The position numbers and the translations under genes were made by a program. A DNA stretch of 64,000 bases from an uncultured Gammaproteobacteria bacterium. Lineage in GTDB: Bacteria; Pseudomonadota; Gammaproteobacteria; GCA-001735895. A model generated the notes under the pieces. That model ran no database searches. It saw only the letters and a list, made by a program, of their open reading frames with translations, and had not been told where the DNA came from. Of the stretch, positions 8,808 to 62,350 are shown in pieces. The stretch covers positions 72,714-136,713 of the forward strand of contig CAMYLU010000005.1 of NCBI GenBank assembly GCA_947259485.1. The letters run 5' to 3'. The stretch's first letter is position 1. Every line of letters begins with the position of its first letter.

Positions 8808-8883
<76 letters not shown>

Positions 8884-23954: not shown

Positions 23955-23969
23955 GTCAAAACCTCTCCA

Positions 23970-25979: not shown

Positions 25980-25992
25980 AATTTCTTCTCCG

Positions 25993-26868: not shown

Positions 26869-26877
26869 GGGCAGAGC

Positions 26878-27909: not shown

Positions 27910-27972
27910 ATTTTACCGTTTCACATCTTATCTGTATGTGCCGGGATTCTGGAGAGACTTGATTATTTAGTA

Positions 27973-27989
27973 AAGTTTAATAAACTTTC
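27973..27989. promoter_or_regulatory. Perfect 17-bp palindrome AAAGTTTA-a-TAAACTTT in the cbbR-cbbF divergent intergenic region; putative CbbR (LysR T-N11-A type) operator
   Basis: The half-sites are exact reverse complements. It lies 6 nt upstream of the cbbR ATG, inside the 85-nt divergent spacer. Confidence 0.5.
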
Positions 27990-27994
27990 AATTT

Positions 27995-28927
27995 ATGAAA
28001 GAAAAACTTTACCCCTGGTTGCGCCAGCTGACCCTGAAACAGATGCGGGGTTTCACAGCAGTGGTTGAAGCAGGCAGTGTATCGGGTGCCGCCAAGCGTC
28101 TGCACCTGACGCCACCCGCAGTCTCGCTGCAGTTGCGCGATCTTGACGCGACTATTGGCTTACCCCTACTGGAACGCAGCGGCCATGGATTGATCCCGAC
28201 GCTGGCGGGTCGCGAATTACTATCCCTGGCGCTGGAAATACAGGAATCGCTGGATCGATTCGGCGAAACCGCGACTGAATTAAAGGGGGTAGATCATGGC
28301 ATTGTCTCGGTCGGCGTGGTCAGTACCGCACGCTATTTTGCTCCAACGATATTGGCTGAATTCATGAAAATCTACCAGGACATTAAAATTCAGCTACTGG
28401 TAGGGAACCGCGAAACCACTATGAAAAAACTGGAAAGCATGGAGCTCGACTTTGCCATCACCGGTTTGCCACCAGAACATTTTGCGGTAAAGAAAGAATT
28501 TATTGCAAAGCACCCACAGATTATCATTGCCGCCCCGGATCACCCGCTGGCGGATAAGAAAAGAATCTCTTTGTCGGAATTAAAAGATGAGACATTCCTG
28601 TTACGAGAAGCCGGATCCGGCACTCGCTCGGTGACCGACAAACTGTTTGCACGCAACAAGAGCCTACCCAGGTCAGGGCTGGAATTCGGCAGCAACGAAA
28701 CCATCAAACAGGCGGTGATGGCGGGTATGGGAATCGCGGTAATTTCGTCGCACACGGTTGATGCCGAACTCAATGAAAGGCGCCTGGTTTCGCTTGACGT
28801 CAAGGGTTTACCCATCAACCGTAAATGGTTCGTGGTCAAGCACGGCAATAAGCGCTTCCTGCCGTCTGCCCAGGCATTGTGGAATTTTGTCGCACGCAAT
28901 GGCAAATACTACCTACCCCAACCCTGA
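27995..28927 (+). CDS. cbbR: LysR-family transcriptional regulator CbbR
   Basis: N-terminal LysR HTH (FTAVVEAGSVSGAAKRLHLTPPAVSLQLRDLD) and a C-terminal substrate-binding domain. It is divergent from the cbb operon. Confidence 0.85.
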   Translation: MKEKLYPWLRQLTLKQMRGFTAVVEAGSVSGAAKRLHLTPPAVSLQLRDLDATIGLPLLERSGHGLIPTLAGRELLSLALEIQESLDRFGETATELKGVDHGIVSVGVVSTARYFAPTILAEFMKIYQDIKIQLLVGNRETTMKKLESMELDFAITGLPPEHFAVKKEFIAKHPQIIIAAPDHPLADKKRISLSELKDETFLLREAGSGTRSVTDKLFARNKSLPRSGLEFGSNETIKQAVMAGMGIAVISSHTVDAELNERRLVSLDVKGLPINRKWFVVKHGNKRFLPSAQALWNFVARNGKYYLPQP

Positions 28928-29110: not shown

Positions 29111-29809
29111 TTGGATCAACGACGCACACTCGTGTTAATGCCCGGGCTCGACGGCACGGGCAAGTTGTTTGAGCCGATCATTCCATTTCTCCAAACACAC
29201 TTCGATTTAACCATCGTAACCTACCCTGATCTCGATTCGCTTACGGATTATGTCAACTGCGCGCAAAACCAACTGCCGGAGACGCCAGGATTCTCGCTGC
29301 TAGCCGAGTCCTTCTCCGGCCCCGTCGCAATGGCTTTAATGGCACATCTACCCGACCAGATCGGCCCTTCGGTGCTAGCTGCAACTTTCGCACGCTCCCC
29401 ACTGGCAACGTTGACACGCATGTTAGGTTATGTTCCGGAGCACATGTTTTCCATTGGCGCATTAAACGATTTCTGCCTGGACGTATATGCGACCGATAAC
29501 GAAGACTTATCGGACACGCAACCGTTGCCGCTGAACGTGACCGAGCAGATTGACGGAGCACTGTTAAGACACCGGATCTCGGTTTTGAGCCGGGTTGACG
29601 TTTCAGCCCTGTTACCGAGCATCCAGGTGCCCATTCTTTATCTGCACGGGGTGCGAGATCGAATCGTTACCAAGCACGACGCGCGAATGATTGAGGATTA
29701 CCTGCCTAATGTCAGCCGGGTCGATATCGACGCCCCCCACTTGCTGCTGCAAACCCAGCCGTCCCAATGTGCCGAGCTGATCTGTAACCACGTTCAACCA
29801 GCCCAGTAA
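29111..29809 (+). CDS. Alpha/beta-fold hydrolase
   Basis: The GLDGTGK loop and the overall pattern fit an alpha/beta hydrolase. Size is 232 aa. Confidence 0.55.
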   Translation: MDQRRTLVLMPGLDGTGKLFEPIIPFLQTHFDLTIVTYPDLDSLTDYVNCAQNQLPETPGFSLLAESFSGPVAMALMAHLPDQIGPSVLAATFARSPLATLTRMLGYVPEHMFSIGALNDFCLDVYATDNEDLSDTQPLPLNVTEQIDGALLRHRISVLSRVDVSALLPSIQVPILYLHGVRDRIVTKHDARMIEDYLPNVSRVDIDAPHLLLQTQPSQCAELICNHVQPAQ

Positions 29810-29974
29810 GCCATTACCCTGTATTTGATCGCTAAAAGTTTGACGAGGATTCATCGATAATCTCGAGAGTATCGCTCGAGCTCGCTTACAGCCGCCCTCA
29901 AGATCCACTGCTTCCCGGACCTTTATGATTTACAAGAACGCTTTTGATATCCCGAAAACAGACACTGAAAATCC

Positions 29975-30015
29975 ATTTCGCAGTGACGGCTAACGACCCA
30001 ACTCAGACGCTCATA
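29975..30015 (+). repeat. Partial copy of the intergenic repeat family (GCTAACGACCCAAyTCAGAC module)
   Basis: Shares GGCTAACGACCCAACTCAGACGCTCA with the copy at 34489..34628. Confidence 0.5.
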
Positions 30016-30060
30016 ATAGTAAGCCGATAAACGCTATTGGAGGATCTGTTATTGGGACGG

Positions 30061-31839
30061 TTACTCCGTCAGGCCCGCCATATGCAAGCCGTCGAGTAAA
30101 TGTCGCCAGTCCGCCTCGGTACGGAAATTGTCTTTGATGTTGCCGAGTAGTTCAGCAGTGGTGTTAGCTGACACTCCCGAAGATTTAAGCACCTTTTGGC
30201 GTTTTGCGATGAATTTGTTCAATGTATCTCGGGCCTGTTCGAGCTCACCCACCCGCGCAAAGGAAGCAGCCAGGTAAGCGTAATCCCAAGCATCCACAAG
30301 GGCCGCACGCAGAGTATTGATTGCTTCCTGATAGCGACCGGCGTAGTAGTAGCCTTGACCCAGCCATCTTTGGTATAAATCAGGAAAAAGCGGATTGAGG
30401 CGAATCGCCTCTTCCAGCTGAGCAATCCCCACATCAAGACGCCCAGCATGTAATAAGGCATGACCCAGTTCGGCCAAAACATCCGCGTCACCCGGCTTCA
30501 ACGCCAACACCCGGTCAAGTTCCAGTTCGGCTTCCTCCCATTGGCCATAACCGATAAGCGCCCACGCCAGGATACATCGGGCCAGGGCGTCATTGCTATC
30601 AAACTCTAATGATTTCCGAGCGTTTTCAAGACTATGCTGCAATGCATTCTCCGTACGCAACCAGCCCAGGAAGTAATCCACGGCATAAGTATTGGCGAGT
30701 CCCGCATAGGCTCTCGAGAACTGCGGGTCACGCTCAATTGCCTGCTGGTATAGCCGTGCTGCTGCGATATTGTCATCTGGATTGAAGCGATTGAATTTAC
30801 GATTGGCCTGCAACAGGTATTCGTATGATTTGATACTGGTCGTAGCTTTCCTGGATGCATTCTCTGCTATGGTCTTACCTAATTGCGCGGCAATGGTAGC
30901 GACAATGGCCCGCGTTACCTCGTCCTGAACCGCGAAGATGTCGTCCAGTTCCCTGTCATAGCGTTCAGCCCAGATATGTTTTCCGGTTTCAGCGTCGATC
31001 AGCTGTGCAGTAATTCGGACCCGGTTCCCAACCCGGCGAACACTACCTTCGACAACGTATTGCGCGCTGAGTTTTTCAGCCACCTCCTTGATATCTATCT
31101 TTTCGCCCTTGAAGGCAAACGAAGAATGCCGGGCAATAACATACAGTATGGGAAAGCGGGAAAGTTCGGTGATGATGTCCTCGGTTATTCCGTCGCTAAA
31201 ATACTCCTGCTCCGGGTCACCACTCATGTTACTAAGGGGTAGCACTGCAATAGAAGGTTTTTCCGTGACGTCCGTAGTCGAAACTTTCTGTTGGTTTTGG
31301 CCGTGAGGTTGGAGTTGCTGTTTTACCGCGTAAGCCCGGACCGGTTCATCGAAACCCTTCAGTTCCTGTTCTCCCAGATTTTCGTATTCAAATGGTAGCC
31401 GCTTGGGTATTGTTTCGTATGCGGCCCCTTGGATGCAGATGCCTCCAGCCTCGGCTAGCTGCTCCAAACGCTGTGCCAGCACTATGCCTTCGCCTGTTAC
31501 GGTATTGTCGGCCACAACCACCTCGCCCATGGCAATACCAACTCGAACTATGGGGCGGATTTCGTCCTGTAACGATTCAATATGCAGGGCATTCGCAGAC
31601 TGAAAATCGACTGAAGCACTGACAGCATCCGATGCCCGGGAAAATTCGGCAACTAGCGCGTCACCCCGAATCTCATGTGCGACGCCATTATGGTTGCTTA
31701 TGGTTTCGGAGAAACGCCGAAAGGCATCCCGGAAGCGCTCGTGAGCCAGGATCTCGTCCTGTCGCACAAGCCCGGTTGAATCCACCACATCGGCATGGAG
31801 GATAACTGCGAGTTTTCGCGATAGTTGATCCTTATCCAT
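30061..31839 (-). CDS. Class III adenylate/guanylate cyclase (CHD) fused to a conserved ILPF...DGxTEDxIT domain and C-terminal TPR repeats (paralogue 1)
   Basis: N-terminal cyclase homology domain (LAVILHADVVDSTGL...IRVGIAMGEVV). Middle domain reads IAVLPLSNMSGDPEQEYFSDGITEDIITELSR...RVRITAQLIDAETGKHIWAERYDR. TPR-like repeats follow at the C-terminus. Confidence 0.75.
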   Translation of the reverse strand: MDKDQLSRKLAVILHADVVDSTGLVRQDEILAHERFRDAFRRFSETISNHNGVAHEIRGDALVAEFSRASDAVSASVDFQSANALHIESLQDEIRPIVRVGIAMGEVVVADNTVTGEGIVLAQRLEQLAEAGGICIQGAAYETIPKRLPFEYENLGEQELKGFDEPVRAYAVKQQLQPHGQNQQKVSTTDVTEKPSIAVLPLSNMSGDPEQEYFSDGITEDIITELSRFPILYVIARHSSFAFKGEKIDIKEVAEKLSAQYVVEGSVRRVGNRVRITAQLIDAETGKHIWAERYDRELDDIFAVQDEVTRAIVATIAAQLGKTIAENASRKATTSIKSYEYLLQANRKFNRFNPDDNIAAARLYQQAIERDPQFSRAYAGLANTYAVDYFLGWLRTENALQHSLENARKSLEFDSNDALARCILAWALIGYGQWEEAELELDRVLALKPGDADVLAELGHALLHAGRLDVGIAQLEEAIRLNPLFPDLYQRWLGQGYYYAGRYQEAINTLRAALVDAWDYAYLAASFARVGELEQARDTLNKFIAKRQKVLKSSGVSANTTAELLGNIKDNFRTEADWRHLLDGLHMAGLTE

Positions 31840-31914
31840 GGATGGCCTTATTAGGAATTATTCGAGAAATACTATCACAAGCAGTTAATTTATGGGCTTG
31901 AGTGAGCTGTTGGC

Positions 31915-32000
31915 GAGCGTCCGCTTTTGGCCGTTCTCGGAAGCCCAGATTGTGATTTTTAGCGTCCGCTATTGAGGAAGCTGACTCTCCTGTGTCTAAT
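31915..32000 (+). repeat. Intergenic repeat family copy (two GAGCGTCCGCT sub-repeats)
   Basis: Contains GAGCGTCCGCTTTTGGCCGTTCTCGGAAGC ... AGCGTCCGCTATTGAGGAAG. Confidence 0.7.
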
Positions 32001-32009
32001 TACTAATTT

Positions 32010-32699
32010 TTATTTTTTCGAAAACTCGAACCTTATCCGCAACTCCCCCTCAAACCAGCTATCAATACTCAGAATACCCTTTTTTTCCGCTATATAAAAT
32101 CCATCCTGTGCTTCGGGCTCCACACGCTTGAACTGCATTTCATTATTCGAATAATGCACCGTAAGGCTTACATGGTAAGGATAATAGCCATCAAGGAATT
32201 TGCGATGGTAGGGTCCGTGTTGCATAGAATAGGTTTTATCGGATAGGTGCTGTAATACTTTCACATCCGCCTGCACACACAACACTGCGCCTTTCTCTAC
32301 GTCTTCCAGTTCGACTCCATTCTGTCCAACACGAATTTGTGCAATTTGTTCTACGCGAGTCACTTGTAGATTTTTCATTTTACGATAGGCATACACCACA
32401 TCGGTCCTGCCCACCGCATCCAGATGCCGGTAACATTGTTGCATTTTTACCCAGCCGGTTTGCAGACTCTCGTTGGTTACCCATAGGTGGGTATCGGAAT
32501 GCAAAATCAATTGGTCATGTATGGGAGCAATGAACTCCAGCTGGCCTTCATTGACTTGCTGGGCGCGCCATTCACTGTCGTCGTCCGGCCAGCTTTCATC
32601 AACGGGCGATTCTGCTGCAGTAAGCATTACAGGAAATAGCAAAACCCAAATCGCTTTAATTGAAATGCGTTTACCAGTGATAAACATCATGCTTGACAC
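32010..32699 (-). CDS. Secreted hypothetical protein (229 aa)
   Basis: Signal peptide KAIWVLLFPVMLTAAESP. No recognisable domain. Confidence 0.5.
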   Translation of the reverse strand: MSSMMFITGKRISIKAIWVLLFPVMLTAAESPVDESWPDDDSEWRAQQVNEGQLEFIAPIHDQLILHSDTHLWVTNESLQTGWVKMQQCYRHLDAVGRTDVVYAYRKMKNLQVTRVEQIAQIRVGQNGVELEDVEKGAVLCVQADVKVLQHLSDKTYSMQHGPYHRKFLDGYYPYHVSLTVHYSNNEMQFKRVEPEAQDGFYIAEKKGILSIDSWFEGELRIRFEFSKK

Positions 32700-32762
32700 C
32701 CATTAACGGGTAGTTTGCCGATATTATCAATATTTTACTTTTTACCGTCGAGATAAGGTATC

Positions 32763-32853
32763 AAGCGTCCGCTTCTGGCCGAAAATCGAAGCTCAGTTGG
32801 CACGCCCCAGCGTCTGCTTACAAGAAAACAGATCCCCGCCATGTGAAAATAGG
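32763..32853 (+). repeat. Intergenic repeat family copy
   Basis: Contains AAGCGTCCGCTTCTGGCCGAAAATCG...CAGCGTCTGCTTACAAGAAAACAG...ATGTGAAAATAGG. Confidence 0.7.
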
Positions 32854-33043
32854 CTTCCGAGATCAACCCAAATACGACGCTTACTCGAATTAACACCTGT
32901 CAAATGCAAGGTCTGACAATTTGTACGATCGAATCGCAAAGGTGGGAAACGACAATAGCTAAATATCCGGGGGTGCACGAGGAACTATTTCAGCTTCGCG
33001 GCCTGGATGACTGATACAATTCGCGACCGAGAAGTGGCGGCCA

Positions 33044-34417
33044 TTGCCGCCGGGCAAAAGCATGCAAGAAACCGAAGACCATCAGCAGAGTTTCAAGTGG
33101 TTTGCGTTAGCATTATCCCTGGGTGGCTATCTGATCACTTTTTGGGCCTGGCCTTCGCCTGACTCCAACCAGGCCGTGGTGGCGGCCACACTGGTTGCAG
33201 TTATCGTCCTGTGGGTGACAGAAGTTATACCGCTGTACGTCTCCGCGCTGACCGGTTCCTTCCTGCTCCTTGCGCTCGGCGATTTCTCCGCCGGTGAAAT
33301 TTTCCAGCCCTATTTTGATCCGGTGATCGTCTTGTTTCTGGGTGGGTTCGTGCTTGCCCGGGCATTGCAGAAGTATGAAATCGACCGTCGCGTCGCGCAC
33401 GAGGTTCTCAAGCGTCTCGGTGATAGTCCGCTGATTTTCGTACTCGGGCTGATGCTGGTGACCGCCTTCCTGTCGATGTGGATGTCGAACACGGCATCGG
33501 CGGCCATCATGATCCCGATCTCCATTATCGTGCTCCGCGAAAATAATCTGTTCCACAAGCATTCCCGATTCGCCCGGGGCGCCGTGCTAGCTGTCGCGTA
33601 TGCGGCCACTATCGGTGGAATCGGTTCTCTGGTTGGAAGTCCGCCCAATGCTATTGCAGCCAGGTACCTCGGCGAGAACGGTATCTCGCTGGATTTCCTC
33701 GAATGGATGCTCAAGGCATTGCCCTTTGTCTTATTGGCGCTGCTGTTTACCTGGTTATTATTATTTCTGTTCAACAAACCCGAGATAGAGAAAATAGAGT
33801 TCAAGTACGAGGCGATGCCGATCAACCGGCCGCAAAAGCTCATATTCCTCGTTTTTCTAATCACCGTCGTGGGCTGGCTCAGCACCAAATATACCGGCCT
33901 TTCGGCTTCCACGGTTGCACTGATTCCAGTAATCAGCCTGTTCGCGCTGGGTCTGCTGGACGAAAACGACCTGGGCAGGATTTCCTGGCCGACGCTGTTG
34001 CTTTTCGGCGGGGGGCTGAGCCTGGGGTCAGCGGTCAGCCAGGTCGGCATCGATATCTGGCTGGCGTCTATGGTGAAGGTCTGGATTGCCAATATTCCGC
34101 TGTTTCTGGCGCTAACGGCACTCGTGTTTTTCGGTATCCTAGTGACCATGGTGGCTAGTAACACCGCCTCCGCAGCGATACTGATTCCGCTGATGCTACC
34201 CCTGTCCAGCAGCCTCGGAATCGATATGAAGTCGATTGCGCTGTTGATCGCTATCGGCGTATCTTTGGACTTCATGATGCCGGTGGGCACGCCACCGAGC
34301 GCGATTGCCTACTCCACCGGCGTTGTCAGCGTGCGCGATATGATCAGGAATGGATTCATGGTTAATATCGGCACCGGACTGATTCTGGTGACGCTGTACT
34401 ACTTCTTTTACCTTTAG
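33044..34417 (+). CDS. DASS/SLC13-family (ArsB/NhaD-superfamily) anion:Na+ symporter
   Basis: 457 aa, polytopic. Conserved SNTASAA motifs occur twice, with hairpin-loop signatures typical of DASS transporters. Confidence 0.7.
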   Translation: MPPGKSMQETEDHQQSFKWFALALSLGGYLITFWAWPSPDSNQAVVAATLVAVIVLWVTEVIPLYVSALTGSFLLLALGDFSAGEIFQPYFDPVIVLFLGGFVLARALQKYEIDRRVAHEVLKRLGDSPLIFVLGLMLVTAFLSMWMSNTASAAIMIPISIIVLRENNLFHKHSRFARGAVLAVAYAATIGGIGSLVGSPPNAIAARYLGENGISLDFLEWMLKALPFVLLALLFTWLLLFLFNKPEIEKIEFKYEAMPINRPQKLIFLVFLITVVGWLSTKYTGLSASTVALIPVISLFALGLLDENDLGRISWPTLLLFGGGLSLGSAVSQVGIDIWLASMVKVWIANIPLFLALTALVFFGILVTMVASNTASAAILIPLMLPLSSSLGIDMKSIALLIAIGVSLDFMMPVGTPPSAIAYSTGVVSVRDMIRNGFMVNIGTGLILVTLYYFFYL

Positions 34418-34488
34418 GCCCATGCCTGATCGAGCGTGGCTCACATCAAGGGGTGCGGTCATGGTCCGAAGCAGATAGCAAACTTTTT

Positions 34489-34628
34489 TAGCGTCCGTTC
34501 CTGGCCGAAGTACGACCCTGATGTTTCAAGTTTGAGTGTCCGCTATCGAGAAAGCAGACGCTTAAAACTCAAAATTCAGCTTCCGCTAACGACCCAATTC
34601 AGACTCTCACTTGTTATGTGAAAATAGG
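34489..34628 (+). repeat. Intergenic repeat family copy (long form)
   Basis: Contains TAGCGTCCGTTCCTGGCCGAAG...GAGTGTCCGCTATCGAGAAAGCAGACGC...CTTGTTATGTGAAAATAGG. Confidence 0.7.
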
Positions 34629-34662
34629 AAAAAAGCGTTCGTTTATCTTAGGAAATGGGGCT

Positions 34663-36435
34663 TCAAGCTGCAGTTGTGTCAGGTAACCCTGCTTTCTTGA
34701 GGTCTATGGCAATCTGCCGGGGAACGACTTCATCTTTATAGAATTCTGTCTCGAGGAAGTTTCCGATAGAAAAACTCGGATTGCTAATCAATAATTCCTC
34801 GACGGCCTTTCTCAGAGCCATTTCGTCATCCAAATGACTTAATGCGGCTACTAGATATGCATGGGAGCGCTGCGATTTGTGTAAGAGCTGTGATACGACG
34901 TTGACGGTTTCACGATAATTTCCAAGGACGTAATGTGCGGCCGCCTCAAGTTCACGACAGTAGGTTGGCAACAGGGGGTCCAGTGTTTTTGCACGATTCT
35001 GATATTCCAGAGCCTTTTCCCCGTCCCCAAGAAAATTGTATATTTCGCCCATACGGCCGACTAGGTAGGCATGGTTGGGATTGAGGTCGAGTGCACGTTG
35101 GAAATGGTATTCAGCCTTGTCAAAGTCTCGGTCGTACAGACTAAGAGACCCCATTATCCGATGACATTCTGGCTCATTTTCATCAAGTTCTAAACCTCGT
35201 CGTCCCGAAGCTACGGCTTCATCCTTGTAATCGTCTCCTGTCCATTCGCCTAAGGTGGTAATTGCACAAGCATGCCAAGCGTATGCGCGACCATATTCTG
35301 GGTCCTTTTCGATTGCCATATTGAACCAGTGAAGTGCCTGCTCCGCTGATTCCTGTGTTACACCTCCCAGTCGGTGGTTCTCCAGACCACGAAGCAGGCA
35401 TTCGTATGCATACATATCTGCCGGTTTCTTCTTCTTTGCCGAAACCAGCGTTTCGTGCTCCATCCGTCCTGCAACCATTGAAACAATCGACTTGGCCAGC
35501 TCGTCCTGAACCTCAAACAATTCGGTCAAGTCACAGTCATATTTTTCAGCCCAAACATGATCCCCAGTTTGGGTACTGATAAGCTGGCACGTAATCCGAA
35601 TGCGGTCACCCATTTTTCGCACACTGCCTTCCAGGCAATAGGCGACACCCAATTGTTTACCCACTTCCCGTAAATCGAGGTTCTGGCCCTTGAAGGCAAA
35701 ACTAGCATTTCGCGACGTAACAAATAATCCAGTAAAGCGGGCGAGTTCAGTTATCAGGTCATCGGTAAAACCATCTACAAAATACTCTTGTTCTGAATCG
35801 TCACCAAAAACTGCAAACGGCAAGACTGCTAACGAATTTGGATTAACAATTTCTTGTTGATTAATAGATATAACCTCTGGATCGCCGGACATGCAACTAT
35901 GGTTTCCAAGTTCTCCAACTACGCGATAGGCTTGAACAGGCTCTGAGATATTTTTCAGGACCTGTTCGCCTTGGTTTTCAAATGTAAGTTGGGCTACTCG
36001 TTTCACATTATCAAATACAGCTCGCGAAATAAGAATTGAACCTGGATCGGCTAACCCTTCAAGCCGTGCTGCGATATTGACATCATCCCCGTAGATGTCT
36101 TCGTCATCCCAAAATATATCACCGAGATTAACGCCCATACGAAACCACATGCGTTTTTCTTCGGGTATGTCTTTTACCCGGGGTTCGATACTTTTCTGAA
36201 TGGCGTAGGCAGCTAATACGGCATTGGTCGCCGAGATGAATTCTGCCAAAAACCCATCGCCGGTCAGCTTTACAATCCGACCTGAGAACTCCTTTATTAT
36301 CGGATCGACAATTTCATGTCGATATGACCACCAAGTATTGATGGTTCCCTCTTCATCCATACGCATTAGACGCGTGTAGCCTGCCACATCAGCGGCCAAG
36401 ACCGCAGCTAATCGCCGTTGCGCCTGTTGTTCCAT
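34663..36435 (-). CDS. Class III adenylate/guanylate cyclase fused to the ILPF...DGxTDDLIT domain and TPR repeats (paralogue 2)
   Basis: CHD N-terminus (LAAVLAADVAGYTRLM...FRMGVNLGDI). Middle domain reads LAVLPFAVFGDDSEQEYFVDGFTDDLITELARF...RIRITCQLISTQTGDHVWAEKYD. C-terminal TPRs follow. Architecture matches 30061..31839. Confidence 0.75.
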   Translation of the reverse strand: MEQQAQRRLAAVLAADVAGYTRLMRMDEEGTINTWWSYRHEIVDPIIKEFSGRIVKLTGDGFLAEFISATNAVLAAYAIQKSIEPRVKDIPEEKRMWFRMGVNLGDIFWDDEDIYGDDVNIAARLEGLADPGSILISRAVFDNVKRVAQLTFENQGEQVLKNISEPVQAYRVVGELGNHSCMSGDPEVISINQQEIVNPNSLAVLPFAVFGDDSEQEYFVDGFTDDLITELARFTGLFVTSRNASFAFKGQNLDLREVGKQLGVAYCLEGSVRKMGDRIRITCQLISTQTGDHVWAEKYDCDLTELFEVQDELAKSIVSMVAGRMEHETLVSAKKKKPADMYAYECLLRGLENHRLGGVTQESAEQALHWFNMAIEKDPEYGRAYAWHACAITTLGEWTGDDYKDEAVASGRRGLELDENEPECHRIMGSLSLYDRDFDKAEYHFQRALDLNPNHAYLVGRMGEIYNFLGDGEKALEYQNRAKTLDPLLPTYCRELEAAAHYVLGNYRETVNVVSQLLHKSQRSHAYLVAALSHLDDEMALRKAVEELLISNPSFSIGNFLETEFYKDEVVPRQIAIDLKKAGLPDTTAA

Positions 36436-36543
36436 TAGATAGCTCTATAGCGAATAATAAAACGATTAATCAGTATGCTAGTTAGCCCAAGATAAGGCAA
36501 ATGAGAGACCGACTTCGGCGAAATCTCCCCATGTTCACGAAAC

Positions 36544-36659
36544 AGTCCTTCTCCAGTGTCCGAAACTGGCCGATTCGAGAAGCCTGGGAAGCGTATTTCA
36601 GGGTCTGCTATTGAGAAATCGTAAGCGCAACGAGTGGTTTTGCCGGATTACATGCGCTT
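36544..36659 (+). repeat. Intergenic repeat family copy (long form ending TTGTTGTGTGGC)
   Basis: Contains CAGTGTCCGAAACTGGCCGA...GGTCTGCTATTGAGAAATCG...GAGTGGTTTTGCCGGATTACATGCGCTTGTTGTGTGGC. Confidence 0.7.
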
Positions 36660-36695
36660 GTTGTGTGGCTACTCCATCATAAAGAAGCTACGCAG

Positions 36696-37088
36696 CTATT
36701 CCGAAGATGGATTATCGCTGGTAAGTACATTGACATGAAACTTCCAGCTACCATCAGTTTGTCGCTTAAAGACGTTTACTGATTTACCCGTTTCGGTGAA
36801 GACCGTCCCATCATCATTATCATAGTCTTCGGAGTAGGCAACTATCGAATATGCCAAATCGTTGTCGATAGACAACTCCAAGTCAGTAACTTTCTTGTTC
36901 TTTGCGCCGCCCTCGATCCAACCTTGCATGGCTATTTCGACTGCATCTCGACCATGGGCATTATCACCATAGGAAGAGAGAACCCACGCGTCTACTGTGT
37001 AACATGCTGCACAAGCCTTTGCGTCTCTTTGTTCAAACGAATTAATCCAAGTTTGGTGGAGTTTTTCTAATTCAGCCTCGGCGCTCAT
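36696..37088 (-). CDS. SnoaL-like/NTF2-fold protein (DUF4440-like)
   Basis: Start is set at the internal ATG (MSAEAELEKLHQTWINSF...), which has a perfect AGGAGG RBS. The longer track ORF (to 37202) would leave only 19 nt to the divergent gene and overlaps a repeat copy. Confidence 0.6.
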   Translation of the reverse strand: MSAEAELEKLHQTWINSFEQRDAKACAACYTVDAWVLSSYGDNAHGRDAVEIAMQGWIEGGAKNKKVTDLELSIDNDLAYSIVAYSEDYDNDDGTVFTETGKSVNVFKRQTDGSWKFHVNVLTSDNPSSE

Positions 37089-37117
37089 AGCACTTCCTCC
37101 TGATAAAGAGAATTGAC

Positions 37118-37210
37118 CCGATAACATATTATCACTGTTAATGGGCGTCTGCTGTTGGCCGTTACCCCACAGCCGGATTCTAGAAGTTGAGTGGCTGCTC
37201 ACTATAGAGT
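37118..37210 (+). repeat. Intergenic repeat family copy (GATAACATATTATC-containing variant)
   Basis: Contains CCGATAACATATTATCAC...GGGCGTCTGCTGTTGGCCGTT...GAGTGGCTGCTCACTATAG. Confidence 0.6.
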
Positions 37211-37221
37211 AACTTCTCGCT

Positions 37222-37845
37222 ATGTATGTACTTCACTGGTCAAGAGGATGTGGGTCGTTCGCACCACACGCTGCTCTTAGCGAGGTCAGTGCGTCATACG
37301 AACTGATTGAAGTCGATTTGGACTCCAATCAGGAATACACAGAAGAGTTTCTGGCGATAAATCCACGGGCCCAGGTACCGGTGTTGACGTTGCCGGACGG
37401 GACCATAATGACCGAGTCTGTGGCCATGATGATTCACATCGCCGACTGTCATCCTGCGTCAGGCCTCATGCCTGAGGTCGGACAGACCGAGCGTGCTATT
37501 GCCTATCGATGGCTCGTGTTCAGTGCTGTTAATCTTTATGAGACGGGATGCCGTATCGAGGATACACATCACTACTCGGCGAAGAAGTCGGACTATGAAG
37601 GCATCCGTGCGAAAGCGCGCCATGATCTCGATCAGCATTGGGAAATGGTGGCCGACGCCATAGGTGAAGGACCTTACCTATTGGGACAGCGTTACTCGGT
37701 GGTCGACATCTGTCTGCTCATGATTGCGCAATGGCATCCTGAACCTGGCTCTCTCGTCGGGAGATATCCAAATCTCGGCAAGCTGTGCGATGCGGTAAAG
37801 AACCGACCTGCGATTGAGGCAATTTGGAATCTGAACTTTCCTTAG
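37222..37845 (+). CDS. Glutathione S-transferase family protein
   Basis: N-terminal thioredoxin-like GST motif (VLHWSRGCGSFAPHAAL...VPVLTLPDG) and a C-terminal helical domain. Confidence 0.7.
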   Translation: MYVLHWSRGCGSFAPHAALSEVSASYELIEVDLDSNQEYTEEFLAINPRAQVPVLTLPDGTIMTESVAMMIHIADCHPASGLMPEVGQTERAIAYRWLVFSAVNLYETGCRIEDTHHYSAKKSDYEGIRAKARHDLDQHWEMVADAIGEGPYLLGQRYSVVDICLLMIAQWHPEPGSLVGRYPNLGKLCDAVKNRPAIEAIWNLNFP

Positions 37846-37857
37846 AATGACTCCATT

Positions 37858-37980
37858 GAGCGTCCGAAAGTGGCCGAAGATTGCCGCCTGGATAGGACTT
37901 CTCAGCAGCGTCTGCTATTGAGAAATCGTCGGCGTAGTGAGTGGTTGCTCGACTGCATGCGTTTGTTATGTGGCAATTGG
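37858..37980 (+). repeat. Intergenic repeat family copy (long form ending TTGTTATGTGGCAAT)
   Basis: Contains GAGCGTCCGAAAGTGGCCGAAGATTGCC...CAGCGTCTGCTATTGAGAAATCG...GAGTGGTTGCTCGACTGCATGCGTTTGTTATGTGGCAATTGG. Confidence 0.75.
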
Positions 37981-38003
37981 TCTCTATGGGCATTCTGAAG
38001 TAA

Positions 38004-38453
38004 CTACAGTGTCGCGAGCATAAAAGCGCGATCAAGTTTTTCAAATCCTGATTTTTCGTACAAAGCTGCAGCTTCTGGATTATCGTTTTTTACTTCGAGC
38101 TGTATTGTTGTTATGTCAAGTTCTCGACAAGTGTTTTTAAGAAATTCCATTGCCTGGCGTCCAATACCCATCCCTCGATTTTCTTCACGTAAAAATAATT
38201 CATCCATGCTTGCACTTAATCCCCGTGACTCTAATCGGTAGTGTAGGGTTAGGACAATGTATCCAATATTTGCTTCGTTATGTTTAATTAACCAAACTCG
38301 CCCGACTGACTCGTTTGCCACTACGGTTTCCATTGCAGTTTGAGCGGGCCCAATATCGAATGGTGTCGTATGATCAAACTCATGAAAGTCTTGCATGAAC
38401 TTCATTAATATTGGTAAGTCTGAGGTTTCAGCCCTTTCGAAAGACACGCTCAT
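38004..38453 (-). CDS. GNAT-family N-acetyltransferase
   Basis: Acetyl-CoA binding motif RGMGIGRQAM. Size is 149 aa. Confidence 0.8.
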   Translation of the reverse strand: MSVSFERAETSDLPILMKFMQDFHEFDHTTPFDIGPAQTAMETVVANESVGRVWLIKHNEANIGYIVLTLHYRLESRGLSASMDELFLREENRGMGIGRQAMEFLKNTCRELDITTIQLEVKNDNPEAAALYEKSGFEKLDRAFMLATL

Positions 38454-38477
38454 GTTCCTTCTCCGTTAGTTAATGTT

Positions 38478-38605
38478 TGATTGCCACATAACAGCTGGAT
38501 TATAAGGTTTTTGCCTCGATAACATATTATCGCGGAAATGGTGAGCGTCCGCTAATGGCCGAAATACGAAGCTCGTCATTTGGCAATGAGTGTCTGCTTC
38601 CAGGA
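38478..38605 (+). repeat. Intergenic repeat family copy (begins with the inverted ATTGCCACATAACA module)
   Basis: Contains GATTGCCACATAACAG...CTCGATAACATATTATCGC...GTGAGCGTCCGCTAATGGCCGAAATACG...GAGTGTCTGCTTCCAGG. Confidence 0.75.
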
Positions 38606-38625
38606 TTCAGGTAGCCGGAGGTGGC

Positions 38626-38847
38626 CTAATCTAGTTGCTTGACATTAGGATGGCGTTCTGTGGCCCATTCGTGGCATATATCGTCAAGATATTGGCCGAT
38701 CTCCGACTCCGGGAGGTCAGGTGGTACTGCTATATCTGGTGCAGAGCGTCTTTTCCCATCATCACCCAAATAAAACGTAACCCATCCGTTGTTTGACGCG
38801 GCAATAAGAACTCGACGTCCAAAAACATCAAACCTTAGAGCCGTCAT
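38626..38847 (-). CDS. Small hypothetical protein (73 aa)
   Basis: An ORF between two repeat copies with no domain call. Coding status is uncertain. Confidence 0.35.
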   Translation of the reverse strand: MTALRFDVFGRRVLIAASNNGWVTFYLGDDGKRRSAPDIAVPPDLPESEIGQYLDDICHEWATERHPNVKQLD

Positions 38848-38914
38848 AGTCGTTTCTCACTGCCTAATGCACAAGTTACAGGTCAGTATATATCAGTCGG
38901 GTTTAGGCTTGAGG

Positions 38915-38985
38915 GTTGATGTCCGCTTCTGGCCGTAATCAGAAACACAACATGTGCGTTTGAGTTTCTCCTTTGGGTGCGTATT
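38915..38985 (+). repeat. Intergenic repeat family copy (degenerate)
   Basis: Contains GAGGGTTGATGTCCGCTTCTGGCCGTAATC...GTGCGTTTGAGTTTCTCC. Confidence 0.5.
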
Positions 38986-39027
38986 CCTAGCTAGTTCGGT
39001 TCCACCCTTAGGACTAGAACCGCGAGT

Positions 39028-40332
39028 TTAGGCAAAGGCGTGTAACATGGCATTGCGCACCTGCCACGCCTGTGTGCCGGTATCGGCGTCGATGTCTTTG
39101 AGCGTGATCACTTGGCCCTGCTTTATCGGCGCGGTTAATATGACTTCGCTTGCAAGACCTATCGGCAATGCCTGCGCACTGATACTGGCATTCGCTGGCA
39201 TAATCCTTCCCCAGACGGTGTAGCCGCCTTCGCCATCAAGGGTTTCGTCCACTTCGAGATCGCGCTTGGCCACCGCGACAACATCGGCGTTGAAACCCAC
39301 CGGTGCCCCTGTGGGTTGGCCGCGTAACGCGGCACTCAGAATCGAAATATTGAGTTCCAGGCCAATTAAATGAAAAGGTTTGAACATTGCCGAGTAACGG
39401 CCGCTGTCGTCGGTGTTCATCCCGTATTGCCGGAAACAGGCCGCGCTATAGTCGTTGGACGCTTCGAACACACAGTACACGCCCCAGCGCAGATCGCGGT
39501 TAACGGGTTTGCCATCACGCTCGAGGCTCGACACCACTTCCACTTGGCCGGAAAACTCGAGCTGACCTCCGACGCTTCGAGGTCGCAGCACCTGCGCGAG
39601 GTCATCCGCGCTGCAGGGTGGGAAGGCGAGGCCATTGCCGGGCACCTGTAATCCCGACGCATTGGCGATCGCAGCCATTTCGATGCTGGACTTGGTGCCG
39701 TCGAGGAAGGAATTGAACATCTGGCTGCGCATGCCGGCGGCGGCGGCTTCCGCCGCGCTCAGACCGTAATGCGACCAGACCGTGTCCGGGGTCGATTCGT
39801 GGTAGCTCGACAAATATTTGGTACCTTTGCCGGCCGCGACCACGTTAAAGCCGCAGCTGCGTGCCCAGTCGATCATTTCCATGGTCAACGCTGGTTGATC
39901 GCCGTAGGCCATCGAGTAAACAACGCCGGCTTGTTGTGCTTGTTGCGCGAGGTAAGGACCAGCTAGTACATCAGCCTCGACATTGACCATAATGATGTGC
40001 TTGCCGTGGGCGGCGCATAGCAGCGCGTGTTTGATGCCAGCCGCTGGATAACCGGTGGCTTCGACCACGACATCGACTTTGTCCCCGCGAATCATGACCT
40101 CAGCGTCATCAACAAACTCGGTATTGACCACCCGGCTATCGTCCCAGCCGACCTCGCGGCAACGCGCGATGGCCTGGGCGGGGTCGAGATCGGCGATGGT
40201 GGTGACCACCAGTCCCGGAGTGGTGGGCACCTGGGCGAGGAACATAGAGCCGAATTTGCCAGCGCCGATCAGACCGACCCGTACCGGCTTGCCGTCGTTA
40301 GCGCGCTGAATCAGCGATGAATAGAGATACAT
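39028..40332 (-). CDS. NAD(P)-binding oxidoreductase with a C-terminal SAF domain (COG4091 'predicted homoserine dehydrogenase'-like)
   Basis: Rossmann motif VGLIGAGKFGSMF at the N-terminus of the trimmed ORF. Start is set at the ATG at 40330..40332 (MYLYSSL...). The longer track ORF (to 40725) overlaps the upstream PhyH gene in another frame. Confidence 0.6.
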   Translation of the reverse strand: MYLYSSLIQRANDGKPVRVGLIGAGKFGSMFLAQVPTTPGLVVTTIADLDPAQAIARCREVGWDDSRVVNTEFVDDAEVMIRGDKVDVVVEATGYPAAGIKHALLCAAHGKHIIMVNVEADVLAGPYLAQQAQQAGVVYSMAYGDQPALTMEMIDWARSCGFNVVAAGKGTKYLSSYHESTPDTVWSHYGLSAAEAAAAGMRSQMFNSFLDGTKSSIEMAAIANASGLQVPGNGLAFPPCSADDLAQVLRPRSVGGQLEFSGQVEVVSSLERDGKPVNRDLRWGVYCVFEASNDYSAACFRQYGMNTDDSGRYSAMFKPFHLIGLELNISILSAALRGQPTGAPVGFNADVVAVAKRDLEVDETLDGEGGYTVWGRIMPANASISAQALPIGLASEVILTAPIKQGQVITLKDIDADTGTQAWQVRNAMLHAFA

Positions 40333-40345
40333 GGAAGTGGCAGGT

Positions 40346-41125
40346 TTACGCGACCAGCTCGAGCAGCGTATCGTCAGCCAGCGGCTCAATCGGGTTGAAA
40401 TCACGATGCGCGACCCATTCCGGTCGCTTGAACTGGCGGATATGGTTATCCACGTGGCACAGGGATAGGTACACGATGGTACGGTCCATCGGACTGATGT
40501 TAGGGGGGCTGGCATGTACAAGCAGGCTCGAAAACATAAGCATCGAACCGGCATCGCCGGTAGGTGCCACGCATCCGCCCTGGTCATAAAGCCTGGTAAC
40601 GGTTTCCCGGTCCAGGGTCCACAGCGGATAGCTGGTAGTTTCGAGGTCATGGTCCGCTTCGACCACTCCCTGCCTGTGACTGCCTGGGATAAACAGCAAC
40701 GGGCCGTTGGCAGCGGTGACATCATCCAGAAACACGGCGATATTCATCGCGCGCGGTTCGGGCATTAAATCATCGCGTGCCCAGGTACCGTAATCCTGGT
40801 GCCATTGCCAGACATCGCCATCGAATGCAGCCTTGGCGTTAACCTTGTACTGGTGCATGTAAACCGGGCCGTCGAGCAACCGCATCACTGGTTCGATCAG
40901 GCGTGGGTGTGCGCCGAGTCGGCGGAAGGCATCGTTATAGGTATGTGCCGCGAAGGCAGTGCGTGCGACACCCGTTTTCTCGCGCCAGACTTCCTCGCGT
41001 TGTAACGCGTAAACATCGAGCGCGGCCTGCTTTAGAATCCCTGTTTCCTCGGAGGTGAAAGCGTTTGGAAAAAACAGGTAGCCATCCTGTTCAAATTTTT
41101 CGATTTGCTGATCAGTTAGATGCAT
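40346..41125 (-). CDS. Phytanoyl-CoA dioxygenase (PhyH) family Fe(II)/2-oxoglutarate-dependent oxygenase
   Basis: The HxD...H facial triad context (WHQDYGTW ... HASPPN) and the 259 aa length fit PhyH-family hydroxylases. Confidence 0.7.
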   Translation of the reverse strand: MHLTDQQIEKFEQDGYLFFPNAFTSEETGILKQAALDVYALQREEVWREKTGVARTAFAAHTYNDAFRRLGAHPRLIEPVMRLLDGPVYMHQYKVNAKAAFDGDVWQWHQDYGTWARDDLMPEPRAMNIAVFLDDVTAANGPLLFIPGSHRQGVVEADHDLETTSYPLWTLDRETVTRLYDQGGCVAPTGDAGSMLMFSSLLVHASPPNISPMDRTIVYLSLCHVDNHIRQFKRPEWVAHRDFNPIEPLADDTLLELVA

Positions 41126-41293
41126 GGGCTCGAAAGCTTGTTCTCAAGCCTGATATATTACTTGAAAATTACACTTCATTCCTGTTATTGACGCCAAACC
41201 CGGTTTTTTCGCGTCGCGAGACTCCTCACGCACTAATTGTTTTTTTCAGGACATCTCCAAAGAACTACTTCTGACTGATTTGATTTTCCAACT

Positions 41294-41363
41294 GAGCATC
41301 TGCTTATGGCCGAAGATTGCCCCACGCAGGGGCTTTATGAGCGTCTGCTTTGAGGGAAACAGG
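41294..41363 (+). repeat. Intergenic repeat family copy (short form)
   Basis: Contains GAGCATCTGCTTATGGCCGAAGATTGCCCC...GAGCGTCTGCTTTGAGGGAAACAGG. Confidence 0.7.
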
Positions 41364-41387
41364 TTCTCAGGAAAAAATAATAAACTC

Positions 41388-41798
41388 TTAGGACTGATCA
41401 ATCTCGGCGACAGCCATACCACCAATTTCGATCAAAAGGCCATCCGTGGAAAGCGATGTTACTCCAACAAGCGTATTTGTCGGCAAACATTCCGATTGGA
41501 AAAATTCAGCAATCGTTCCAGTAACATCATTCAGTTGTGAAGGGTCGTAATTGACCACGTGAGTTGTGATTTGAACGATATCAGAAATTTGACCACCTCC
41601 AGTTTCGACGGCGGCTTTTAGATTTCTCATGGTTTGACGGGTTTGAGCAACGATATCATTTTTGCCGACTATCTTGCGGTCGCTATCAAATGACACCTGG
41701 CCAGATAAAAAGATTATACGCCCCCCTTCCGTGGCTACGACGTGGTGATAACTCTTTGGCGCTGGAGAGCCTGGAGGATTGAGGTACGATTTTTTCAT
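41388..41798 (-). CDS. RidA/YjgF-family reactive-intermediate deaminase
   Basis: 136 aa. The pattern (GGRIIFLSGQV ... the GVTSL region) is typical of YjgF/RidA. Confidence 0.75.
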   Translation of the reverse strand: MKKSYLNPPGSPAPKSYHHVVATEGGRIIFLSGQVSFDSDRKIVGKNDIVAQTRQTMRNLKAAVETGGGQISDIVQITTHVVNYDPSQLNDVTGTIAEFFQSECLPTNTLVGVTSLSTDGLLIEIGGMAVAEIDQS

Positions 41799-41876
41799 AA
41801 TTCCATGTCGCTTTCTTAAAGGGGGGATAGAAAGAATATGCGCTAATTGTCAAACGGTCTAGGCACGATTTCTGTG

Positions 41877-41946
41877 AGCGTCCGCTCCTGGCCGAAGATT
41901 GCCACTGGTGAGTAGTTATTCAGTGTCTGCTTTGGAGAAAACAGGC
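41877..41946 (+). repeat. Intergenic repeat family copy (short form)
   Basis: Contains GAGCGTCCGCTCCTGGCCGAAGATTGCCAC...CAGTGTCTGCTTTGGAGAAAACAGG. Confidence 0.75.
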
Positions 41947-42136
41947 GATCCGTGGAAGAACCAGCCTAACGGTTTCATAGCCTAACAAATGCCTGGGGAT
42001 CAGATACTAGAACCGATAATGGGTGCCTTCGTTTACCGGCAAATTAACCTTGTTCGCCAAATTTGCAATCGAACGGTATTTTTTCGACTATCTTTGTTCA
42101 TAACAAGCGTCGAAAAACATCTGAAAATCGGTCACT

Positions 42137-42673
42137 ATGAAAAGATTATTTGCCACCAGGCTTTGTTTAGGGCTTTTGCTGATATCCCTGCTCGTGAGCT
42201 GTGACCAGGTCGAGCAGCTGATTAAACAGGAAGCCAAACCGGTCAATTTTTTAAACGGGACTTTTTCGGTATTGAAACCTGGAAGCTGGTCGACCATGGA
42301 CAATCTGAACGATGAGGCTAATTTGCAAATGGGCAATCTTTTTAAGGAAGCCTATGTTGTTATTTTGACCGAGAACAAACAGGACTTCGACAATATCGGC
42401 CTGCAGGGCCATAGCGATTTGACGAGGTCTTTCATGAGGGAAGCGCTGAAGAATTACCAGGAGTCGCAACGGGTAAAACTCGATATCGGCGGTCATTCGG
42501 CGTTGCGCTACCGCCTGAGCGGAAGCGTGGATAGTATCAAGATTGTCTACTGGCACGTGACCATCGAAACCGCCGATCATTTCCACCAGATGTTGCTGTG
42601 GAGCCTGCCGTCAAAATTTGGCGGAAACGAGGCCGATTTCAATTCCGTGATTCGATCATTCAAGGTACTCTAG
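42137..42673 (+). CDS. Hypothetical lipoprotein
   Basis: Signal peptide plus lipobox LLVSC. No domain call. Confidence 0.5.
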   Translation: MKRLFATRLCLGLLLISLLVSCDQVEQLIKQEAKPVNFLNGTFSVLKPGSWSTMDNLNDEANLQMGNLFKEAYVVILTENKQDFDNIGLQGHSDLTRSFMREALKNYQESQRVKLDIGGHSALRYRLSGSVDSIKIVYWHVTIETADHFHQMLLWSLPSKFGGNEADFNSVIRSFKVL

Positions 42674-42920
42674 CCTCGAACCCGCGCAACGTAGGCTCGG
42701 AATCAGACTTACGCGTTAGATTTTTCTTTTAAGATTCTGGGGACACAATTAACGACAGGTCTCCTCGTGCTCCCCAACTGTCGGAAAATTAAATAAAGAT
42801 CGCACCATAGATTGTTGTCTGGATTGACTTTTACCTAGAACCTCATAAAATACTTTATGATTCAAATATAACTTGCTAAATTTAAACAACTTAATTATTT
42901 CAATTTTAATTAAATAGTTA

Positions 42921-43250
42921 GTGAGGTTCTGGGAATTGTCTTATATCAAAAAAATGGTCGAACGACGTGCTTCCAGGCGCGATCGGCGTTTCTTAGGAAA
43001 TCGACGCTCCAACTACATGCGATATATCCATGCCACCAACGAAGAAAACAAGCGTTTGGGGTTATTCTGGCAGCGATTGATTACTCAAGAATTTATCACT
43101 GAAGAAGACGCATTATTACTGGCCGAGAATTTCTTCCAGGAGTTAGGCGGGTATAGTGACGAGATGGCGAAAGACATGGTCCGAAAAATCTTGAGCGAAG
43201 TCGCTGATCAGTACAGGACTAAAACAACCTTGACCCCGGCAGCCGGTTAG
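42921..43250 (+). CDS. Hypothetical protein (109 aa) in an AT-rich segment
   Basis: ORF only. The upstream 250 nt is strongly AT-rich. Confidence 0.35.
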   Translation: MRFWELSYIKKMVERRASRRDRRFLGNRRSNYMRYIHATNEENKRLGLFWQRLITQEFITEEDALLLAENFFQELGGYSDEMAKDMVRKILSEVADQYRTKTTLTPAAG

Positions 43251-43387
43251 CGGGTAATCAATCCTGTAATATAGCCCTGCCACCGTGCTGGGATTTTTGT
43301 GTTTACTCAGCGTCTGCGACGGCCCGGATAAAGGGTATTGCCAATTGCAGCAAATATATATCGCGAATGGGTTAACGAAAGATTCGA

Positions 43388-62125: not shown

Positions 62126-62350
62126 CAATTTATATAGTACGTCAATGCGAATTTATCAATTTATATAGACTAATTTCTATGAGCCGGCGCACATTGTTCA
62201 GTACATTAAATAGATATACGCTAGCATATCAGTTTATATAAACGTTTATTAGCGTTTAATCATGCTATATAACATTTTTATTTCCTGGGCCAGTGTATGT
62301 TTTTTAAATCACAATAATCGACGTGCAAATTTTTCAGTTTATATAGATCT
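62126..62350. promoter_or_regulatory. Four direct repeats CA(A/G)TTTATATA(G/A) in the AT-rich region upstream of hipBA
   Basis: Copies lie at 62126, 62155, 62228 and 62335, all upstream of the hipB start at 62105. Confidence 0.4.

Follow-up and report, generated by a model that had tools for sequence, protein, structure and literature searches.

A GNAT acetyltransferase gene bracketed by a 14-nt inverted repeat is very probably an integron cassette within an unusual integrase-less array

A gene for a GNAT family N-acetyltransferase lies between the two arms of a perfect 14-nucleotide (nt) inverted repeat in a 64-kb stretch of contig CAMYLU010000005.1 (assembly GCA_947259485.1), which derives from an uncultured Gammaproteobacteria bacterium. 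What do these arms delimit: an integron gene cassette, a small transposable element, or no unit at all? To answer this question, we analyzed the whole stretch, called the window below, together with loci from related genomes, which are numbered with the prefix L. TGTTATGTGGCAAT matched the + strand of the window once, at the downstream arm, and its exact reverse complement forms the upstream arm (Table 1). The original prediction had described this perfect repeat correctly but placed it 2 nt too low. Such pairs are rare: at spacings of 30-1000 nt, the window contains two independent pairs of perfect 14-nt inverted repeats, compared to a mean of 0.17 in 100 dinucleotide-preserving shuffles. Besides the GNAT pair, the window has a single perfect inverted repeat of 14 nt or more with its arms less than 1 kb apart; it is 15 nt long (19691-19705 / 20411-20425) and is in or near the open reading frames (ORFs) at 17702-20077 and 20209-21042.

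Between the arms there is a single long ORF of 450 nt, which encodes 149 amino acids (aa) plus a stop codon. Its product matched Pfam Acetyltransf_1 (E 1.7e-14) and related families, and no NCBIfam model reached its own cutoff. The closest solved structure was PDB 3FYN (E 2.9e-21, residues 6-144), which carries the title "Integron gene cassette protein HFX_CASS3." GC content across the GNAT region is 0.44, compared to ~0.55 beyond the surrounding array. Each arm was also confirmed to be embedded in a neighboring copy of a repeat family, at the edge of the copies whose cores are listed in Table 1. There is no second copy of the GNAT unit in the window, and exact-sequence lookups of the window GNAT, DUF7661, and GST proteins matched no indexed contig.

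We conclude that the GNAT ORF is very probably an integron gene cassette and that the two arms of the 14-nt inverted repeat are its recombination core sites, R' and R''. In integrons, the integrase IntI cuts between the G and the TT of R' (G/TT), and strand exchange occurs there. As a result, the first bases of an integrated cassette (TTRRRY...) come from the distal half of its own attC and pair with R'' (RYYYAA-C). In gene sense, the upstream arm consists of T, the core site GTTATGT (38492 to 38486), and GGCAAT; the core site fits the R' consensus GTTRRRY at six of seven positions. The downstream arm consists of ATTGCC, ACATAAC (37971 to 37965), and A, in which ACATAAC is an R'' site of the RYYYAAC type and is conserved in homologues. 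We infer a crossover point between G38492 and T38491; the first 12 nt of the cassette are TTATGTGGCAAT, and T38493 is part of the preceding attI-like site.

Thirteen contiguous bases at the start of the cassette are complementary to its end (GTTATGTGGCAAT versus ATTGCCACATAAC). About nine of these pairs represent the attC family consensus (CCACATAAC / GTTATGTGG), while the outer four nucleotides (ATTG/CAAT) are specific to the GNAT cassette and are kept in homologues that are 65-69% identical. The 14th pair (T/A) comes from neighboring sequence. The cassette has a 38-nt leader with its own ribosome-binding site, GGAGAAGG, and a consensus scan revealed no sigma-70-like promoter upstream of the ORF. 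The cassette thus consists of one promoterless ORF that is oriented like the array.

GNAT homologues that are 62-69% identical to the window protein are cassettes in complete, canonical integrons. L056 encodes an integron integrase (TIGR02249, 442 bits; cutoff 265) divergent from its cassette array, in which the first cassette, located at attI, encodes the GNAT homologue P0028 (69% identical). L055 encodes an IntI that scored 432 bits, and its GNAT gene is further downstream in an array that also contains HicAB and CcdAB toxin-antitoxin cassettes. In both relatives, intI adjoins the array. The identical P0028 cassette was present in three contexts: at attI in L056 and behind two different attCs in L057 and L058. 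Its upstream flanks differ up to the G of GTTATGTGGCAATC, and the cassette is joined exactly between this G and TTATGTGGCAATC. It ends in GAT ATT GCC ACA TAA-C (ATTGCCACATAAC), followed by a canonical 79-nt attC, and its downstream flanks diverge after ...GATGCGAGGCGTTA or ...GCGAGGCGTTA. The upstream change at G/TT was also mapped in L042, L043, and L046. In the 62-69% homologues, the downstream arm forms the last codons of the ORF (ATT GCC ACA TAA), and the stop codon is inside R''. The arrangement envisaged in the original prediction, in which a TTATGT remnant of R', the ORF, and the R'' site ACATAAC succeed one another, is thus the one found in canonical cassettes of this gene family.

The relatives also bear on how such cassettes move. 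Integrons that encode the integrase P0073 (L059-L068) occupy a conserved chromosomal site (Abhydrolase_2 - argininosuccinate lyase - histidine kinase (HK)/LytTR - hemCD) and have an identical attI, behind which the first cassette varies among samples: four such cassettes were found, with divergence right after GTTA. Since the same integrase and attI occur with four first cassettes, integrons of this lineage exchange cassettes in nature, with crossover where integron biology predicts it. The GNAT gene, together with both arms, was found in at least ten different neighborhoods with flanks that change at G/TT, in agreement with the proposal that it is a discrete unit. Homologues that are 72-98% identical reside in arrays of the repeat family, with different neighbors each time. 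In L001, for example, a Glt_symporter gene is upstream and an IS110-type insertion downstream, and in L007 a Na/H exchanger gene is upstream and a 121-aa ORF downstream. In L036, the closest relative (99.3% identical over window positions 38487 to 37914), a DUF2058-like ORF is upstream. The arms and the junction position were all observed, as were canonical attC, IntI, and attI in relatives. The unit is an object of a known kind, an integron gene cassette, within an unusual variant of an integrase-less array.

We next consider the state of the attC that belongs to the window copy. Eleven canonical attCs of relatives fold as expected, with an R box (TAAC/GTTA), an unpaired AAGC spacer, an L region of three short stems with single bulged bases between them, and a variable stem in which compensatory changes are seen. 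We used canonical attCs of the relatives to build a covariance model, R1, which detected 60 sites in relatives at 21-99 bits, all on the GNAT strand and some inside arrays that also hold the repeat family (L018, L027, L030, and L046). Complete attCs are thus present in relatives. The window copy has only an intact 5' arm (R'' - AAAC - GCATGCAGTCGAGC...); its L'-R' (3') arm is either missing or degenerate, and past the former hairpin apex the sequence is that of the repeat-family core. The 5'-arm motif directly after R'' (AACAAACGCATGCAGTCGAGC) matched the window once, at 37947-37967, and the 3'-arm motif was absent from the whole window. Because it lacks both an L'-R' arm and an integrase in the window, this copy is probably fixed and no longer excisable, and it looks like a relic. 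The suggestion that the unit is mobilizable therefore holds for the GNAT cassette family but is doubtful for this copy.

Several observations weigh against an integron origin. We detected no integrase or integrase pseudogene in the window or at any repeat-family locus, using Pfam searches of the main ORFs, none of which in the window matched Phage_integrase, and tblastn with the L056 IntI and an approximate IntI1 query. No site in the window passed R1, which gave just two weak partial attC matches, one downstream of DUF4440 (15.2 bits) and the other the GNAT remnant (14.3 bits). A scan for hairpins of the form NNNNAAC...GTTNNNN found none in the array, and matches elsewhere were chance-like. 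On the coding strand, the bases that bulge from the attC 5' arm are G, T, and A, unlike classical attC bulges, which are G/T on the bottom strand. Moreover, the upstream arm varies without a compensating change in the downstream arm, for example in L007, L041, L044, and L045. The full 13-14 nt pairing is therefore under no visible selection, and perfect pairing is more plausibly a holdover from the ancestral state than a helix under selection. Lastly, the block shared with L036 stops 5 nt into R' and, at its other end, within the repeat core rather than at G/TT, and its edges consist of a 9-nt microhomology (GTGGCAATC) on one side and an insertion sequence (IS)-like insertion on the other. Thus, the latest rearrangements were not made by IntI.

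Could the arms instead be the terminal inverted repeats of a small transposon that carries GNAT, similar to a miniature inverted-repeat transposable element (MITE), with the transposase encoded elsewhere? The unit starts with 5'-TGT and ends with ACA-3', like many DDE transposon ends, and IS110-family and rve-type IS elements are present in related arrays. However, the bases immediately outside the arms (GCGTT and GCTGG) form no direct repeat, the G/TT junction is one base inside the arm rather than at its outer end, and the window contains only one copy of the unit instead of the multiple near-identical copies typical of MITEs. Further, the corresponding arms in relatives serve as R' and R'' at canonical attC and attI junctions next to IntI. 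As the arms are recombination core sites and are not flanked by a target-site duplication, the non-autonomous element that the original prediction offered as an alternative is very unlikely. It is less far-fetched, though still improbable, that the inverted repeat is a by-product of flanking intergenic repeat copies whose ends are mutually inverted and has no bearing on the GNAT unit. The nine or so consensus bases are found at both ends of many inter-gene elements, and the two ends of one such element match at 7-8 of 13 positions by a by-eye count, so this view is partly true for those bases. It fails because the arms travel with GNAT into the different contexts described above while the sequence beyond G/TT changes. 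In addition, complementarity across genes exceeds that of the inter-gene elements (13/13 for GNAT, 10/13 for a GC-TPR cassette, and ~10/11 for a cassette in L027, by eye), and the additional ATTG/CAAT is cassette specific.

Two other possibilities rank lower still, and we consider both extremely unlikely. One is that the unit is a "dif module" like those of Acinetobacter plasmids, with the arms as its XerC/XerD-type (dif-like) boundary sites. Some modules do have flanking sites in inverted orientation, the upstream site (CTTATAA-TCCAGCTG-TTATGTGGCAA) loosely resembles two inverted tyrosine-recombinase half-sites, and TTATGT matches the start of the XerD arm of dif. A dif module has a 28-bp site on each side, in which 11-nt XerC and XerD arms surround a 6-nt spacer. 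Yet the upstream spacer here has 8 nt, a second half-site is missing from the downstream arm (ACATAA-CAAACG-CATGCAG), and the architecture is fully explained as an attI simple site, which in L056 and L059 is beside a real IntI. Since IntI is a close relative of XerC/D (Xer models are secondary matches of IntI), some resemblance to dif follows. The other is that the arms pair in the GNAT mRNA, joining the 5' leader to the 3' trailer and stabilizing or regulating the transcript. Both arms are in the probable transcript, and 14 bp would make a stable helix. Against this, homologues have the uncompensated one-arm changes noted above, no Rfam family matched, and the downstream arm is coding sequence in the 62-69% homologues. 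We therefore retain the integron cassette as the identity of the GNAT unit; its features and surroundings are collected in Table 1.

Table 1. Coordinates of the GNAT cassette and associated features in the window
Feature	Coordinates	Strand	Basis or note
GNAT family N-acetyltransferase ORF, 149 aa	38004..38453	-	Pfam Acetyltransf_1 and related families; 3FYN relative
Upstream arm of the inverted repeat, gene sense 5'-TGTTATGTGGCAAT	38480..38493	-	Exact match; upstream sequences change at G/TT in relatives
Downstream arm of the inverted repeat, gene sense 5'-ATTGCCACATAACA	37964..37977	-	Exact match; conserved in homologues
Cassette leader with ribosome-binding site GGAGAAGG, 5 nt before ATG	38454..38479	-	Sequence
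Remnant of the GNAT cassette's own attC	37888..37973	-	R1 14.3 bits, E 0.06, several broken pairs
attI-like segment "ext1," CCATTTCCGCGATAATATGTTATCGAGGCAAAAACCTTATAATCCAGCT followed by GTTA	38489..38541	-	Between upstream core and R'; similarity to L056 attI
Integrase-less array, 12 repeat-family copies	29939..43340	-	Repeat-core, ORF, and GC scans
Repeat core fused to attC 5' arm	37857..37939	+	Core scan
Repeat core upstream of GNAT cassette	38542..38619	+	In 3' site of preceding DUF7661 cassette (ORF 38626-38847, -)

The segment that precedes the GNAT cassette resembles attI. In many copies of the repeat, read in gene sense, the end of the core (..GCGGACGCYCA) is followed by a conserved segment of ~50 nt, after which the sequences diverge. 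These segments end in GTTAGGC (after GCT), GTTATGT, GTTAGGT, GTTGTGT, or GTTAGAT. The window segment, ext1, is identical to the true attI of L056 at 33 of 52 nt (z 3.8). Across ext1 copies, identity to this attI ranges from 33 to 39 of 52 nt (z 3.5-7.1); for attC 3' arms, in contrast, the scores are negative. With the ext1 copies as its only input, a profile detected the attI of the P0073 integrons as well as their distal TTATCAGGTCAA box, and the window segment and true attIs align through TATAAT-N7-GTTATGT and an upstream TTATCRAGTCAA box. A consensus promoter scan gave no support to the TATAAT within the segment as a promoter.

We identified 13 distinct attI-like copies: the one in the window, two each in L027 and L030, and one each in L001, L007, L019, L031, L038, L043, L046, and L049. 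Each directly follows a core, none is beside intI, and each is followed by a different cassette. Their hosts are integrase-less arrays of related uncultured marine Gammaproteobacteria. A truncated attI-like copy without R' is present at window positions 37111-37139, upstream of DUF4440. Conservation of the 50 nt before R' in three GNAT contexts made the end of the repeat core a candidate boundary of the GNAT unit; this candidate was rejected, since the conservation proved to be family-wide and attI-like. In the literature that we searched, we found no description of attI-like sites internal to arrays, which is a weak negative.

The array that contains the GNAT cassette spans ~29.9-43.4 kb of the window (13 kb), with a further remnant at ~43310. 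Eleven of its 12 repeat copies share one orientation, and the copy at 29939-30013 fits the core profile on the opposite strand. The core is ~80 nt long and reads, on the + strand, TGAGCGTCCGCTnCTGGCCGAAg - N27 - gAGYGTCTGCTnnnGAGAAAaCAGac. Between the copies are genes of unrelated functions, singly or in pairs and mostly on the minus strand, with GC contents of 0.44-0.60. These genes encode two adenylate-cyclase/TPR proteins, a Na/sulfate symporter, DUF4440, GST, GNAT, and DUF7661 proteins, PhyH with a DRL oxidoreductase, and RidA. The gene-sense 3' end (..CGGACGCTCA) of the core downstream of GNAT comes to within 11 nt of the stop codon of the GST gene (37222-37845), which is convergent. At the distal end of the array, the hydrolase encoded at 29111-29809 was examined as a possible counterpart of the Abhydrolase_2 that flanks intI in relatives and is not its orthologue.

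Some members of the array deserve separate mention. The adenylate/guanylate-cyclase (AC/GC) + TPR paralogues, at cassette positions 30061-31839 and 34663-36435, are ~590 aa and thus large for cassettes; homologues with a conserved leader (..TGTGATAGTATTTCTCGAATAATTCCTAAYAAGGCC-ATG) reside in the arrays of L001 and L035. Between the copies at 38921 and 41293, the PhyH dioxygenase and DRL-type oxidoreductase form a unit of high GC content (39028-41125; 0.58-0.60) in low-GC surroundings; for the 565-aa ORF listed there, the true start codon is probably well downstream of the first ATG. Beside the copy at 41875-41952, two motifs that match the classical R''/R' consensus, GCCTAAC and GTTAGGC, are 9 nt apart (41955-41990). 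Outside the array, the window has one more repeat copy (62464-62541), which adjoins a related TolB_N/TPR gene (62547-63980).

A core-pattern scan of representative genomes yielded 19 loci, nearly all in metagenome-assembled genomes of uncultured marine Gammaproteobacteria, in which the repeats also form arrays with a spacing of roughly 1 kb. No core copies were found in the complete integrons that we examined (L055-L068). Two tblastn matches to IntI1 were discarded: that in L025 is spurious and antisense to an SDR gene, and that in L054 is an unrelated locus picked up through a short peptide motif.

The sites between cassettes in these arrays are composites. Their 5' part is of two kinds, either a canonical attC 5' arm or an inverted copy of the right arm of the core; the latter kind gives rise to an imperfect palindrome of ~125 nt closely flanked by AAC and GTT (for example, 34487-34625). 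Folding of single DNA copies revealed no convincing common hairpin except in two long palindromic repeat copies. Since the 26 nt ending in R' pair with the upstream 240 nt no better than shuffled sequences (z -1.3 to 1.1), the composite sites are not classical attC hairpins. We found no description of such composite, partly attI-like inter-cassette sites in the literature searched. The repeat core may represent either a second, long class of attC or an element that colonized attC sites. In two relatives, such sites have themselves been interrupted. In L001 (~10510-10694), an IS110-family element whose ORF starts with MKINRVGVDLAKNVF interrupts the GNAT attC at R'', and in L036 (~2250-2287), a related end sequence (..ATGGACTCC..) interrupts the repeat core; in each case the contig breaks there.

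How might a cassette have come to lie in an array without an integrase? We propose that the GNAT copy was inserted by an IntI acting in trans at the attI-like site that now precedes it. The attC of the cassette now has its R''-L'' arm only, with a repeat-family element in place of the L'-R' arm, and because of this replacement the hairpin needed by IntI cannot form. Much more tentatively, the integrase-less arrays of this lineage may not be passive debris. Their many compact attI-like sites, each joined to a core at the 3' end of a cassette, could be extra docking points for new cassettes, which would be inserted in trans by the integrase of a distant chromosomal integron, with the GNAT cassette as one such insertion, although we consider this general role for the attI-like sites rather unlikely.

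Taken alone, the GNAT unit is an ordinary integron cassette, and the inverted repeat is its expected signature. The array is of wider interest. Since its inter-cassette sites are composites and not attC hairpins, standard attC-based detection would probably miss all 13 kb of it, and the cassette content of uncultured marine sulfur-oxidizer-like Gammaproteobacteria may be under-counted. How attC clusters without an integrase originate is still an open question (PMC4889954). If the attI-like sites are active, one mechanism for the origin of clusters of attC sites lacking integrases (CALINs) would be directly testable by a standard recombination assay. If docking in trans is true, cassette capture would extend beyond the single attI next to intI and would provide a concrete route for CALIN formation and growth.

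Other parts of the window provide context for the host. The array adjoins a Calvin-cycle cluster (22872-28927) that encodes a class II fructose-bisphosphate (FBP) aldolase, phosphoribulokinase (PRK), FBPase, and a LysR-type regulator, which suggests that the host is chemoautotrophic. Apart from two tRNAs, no Rfam family matched the window. One of these tRNAs, at 10908-10978 (-), scored 48.5 bits and was unreported by ARAGORN. Starting 54 nt beyond it, a 40-nt stretch (11032-11071) is 95% identical to 8845-8884, which overlaps the 5' end of tRNA-Gly(CCC) (8808-8883, -). Two AT-rich direct repeats of 51 nt (62229-62279 and 62334-62384; 76% identical) are intergenic, beside a hipA-like toxin gene (60508-61755).

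Comparison with known systems places the locus between several of them. The closest solved relative of the GNAT protein, HFX_CASS3, is itself named an integron cassette protein and is a distant homologue. The window resembles a CALIN (Cury et al. 2016, PMC4889954) in having a one-orientation array of unrelated cassettes, no integrase or integrase pseudogene nearby (in this case, throughout 64 kb), and a complete integron elsewhere in the lineage. By definition, a CALIN has two or more attC sites, found with the covariance model of IntegronFinder, no more than 4 kb apart (Cury et al. 2016, PMC4889954). The window differs in that its inter-cassette sites are not recognizable attCs, even with our lineage-specific model, but composites of an attC 5' arm or palindromic arm, a core of ~80 nt and, in some copies, a 50-nt attI-like segment that ends in R'.

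An attI is a simple site of two inverted IntI-binding boxes together with accessory repeats (PMC3146285). It lies beside intI and is active as the double-stranded partner of attC. The 50 nt that precede the GNAT cassette can be aligned with the true attI of L056 and of the P0073 integrons; unlike attI, ext1 is not beside intI, and it recurs many times within arrays, in every case joined to the repeat core. Elements that colonize attC sites include IS1111-attC insertion sequences and group IIC-attC introns (PMC11187229, PMC3001079). Like these elements, the repeat core may be a repeated foreign segment that interrupts attC at a fixed position, the hairpin apex, and IS110-family insertions occur at such sites in L001 and L036. 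Unlike them, the core is non-coding, is ~80-125 nt long, and has no IS or intron features.

The last comparison is with the sedentary chromosomal integrons of marine Gammaproteobacteria (such as those of L055, L056, and L059-L068, next to Abhydrolase_2 - argininosuccinate lyase - hemCD). In these terms, the window is not a complete integron, in which intI, encoding a tyrosine recombinase with the IntI-specific insertion, adjoins attI and the array: it lacks IntI, a true attI, and the 3' arm and R' of the attC, and its GNAT ORF stops 41 nt before R'' rather than inside it. Nevertheless, these integrons hold the same GNAT family as the window, and their cassettes share with the window copy the start between G and TTATGTGGCAA, the R'' sequence ATTGCCACATAAC, the attC 5' arm AAGCGCATGCAGTCGGAC, and a single promoterless ORF oriented with the array.

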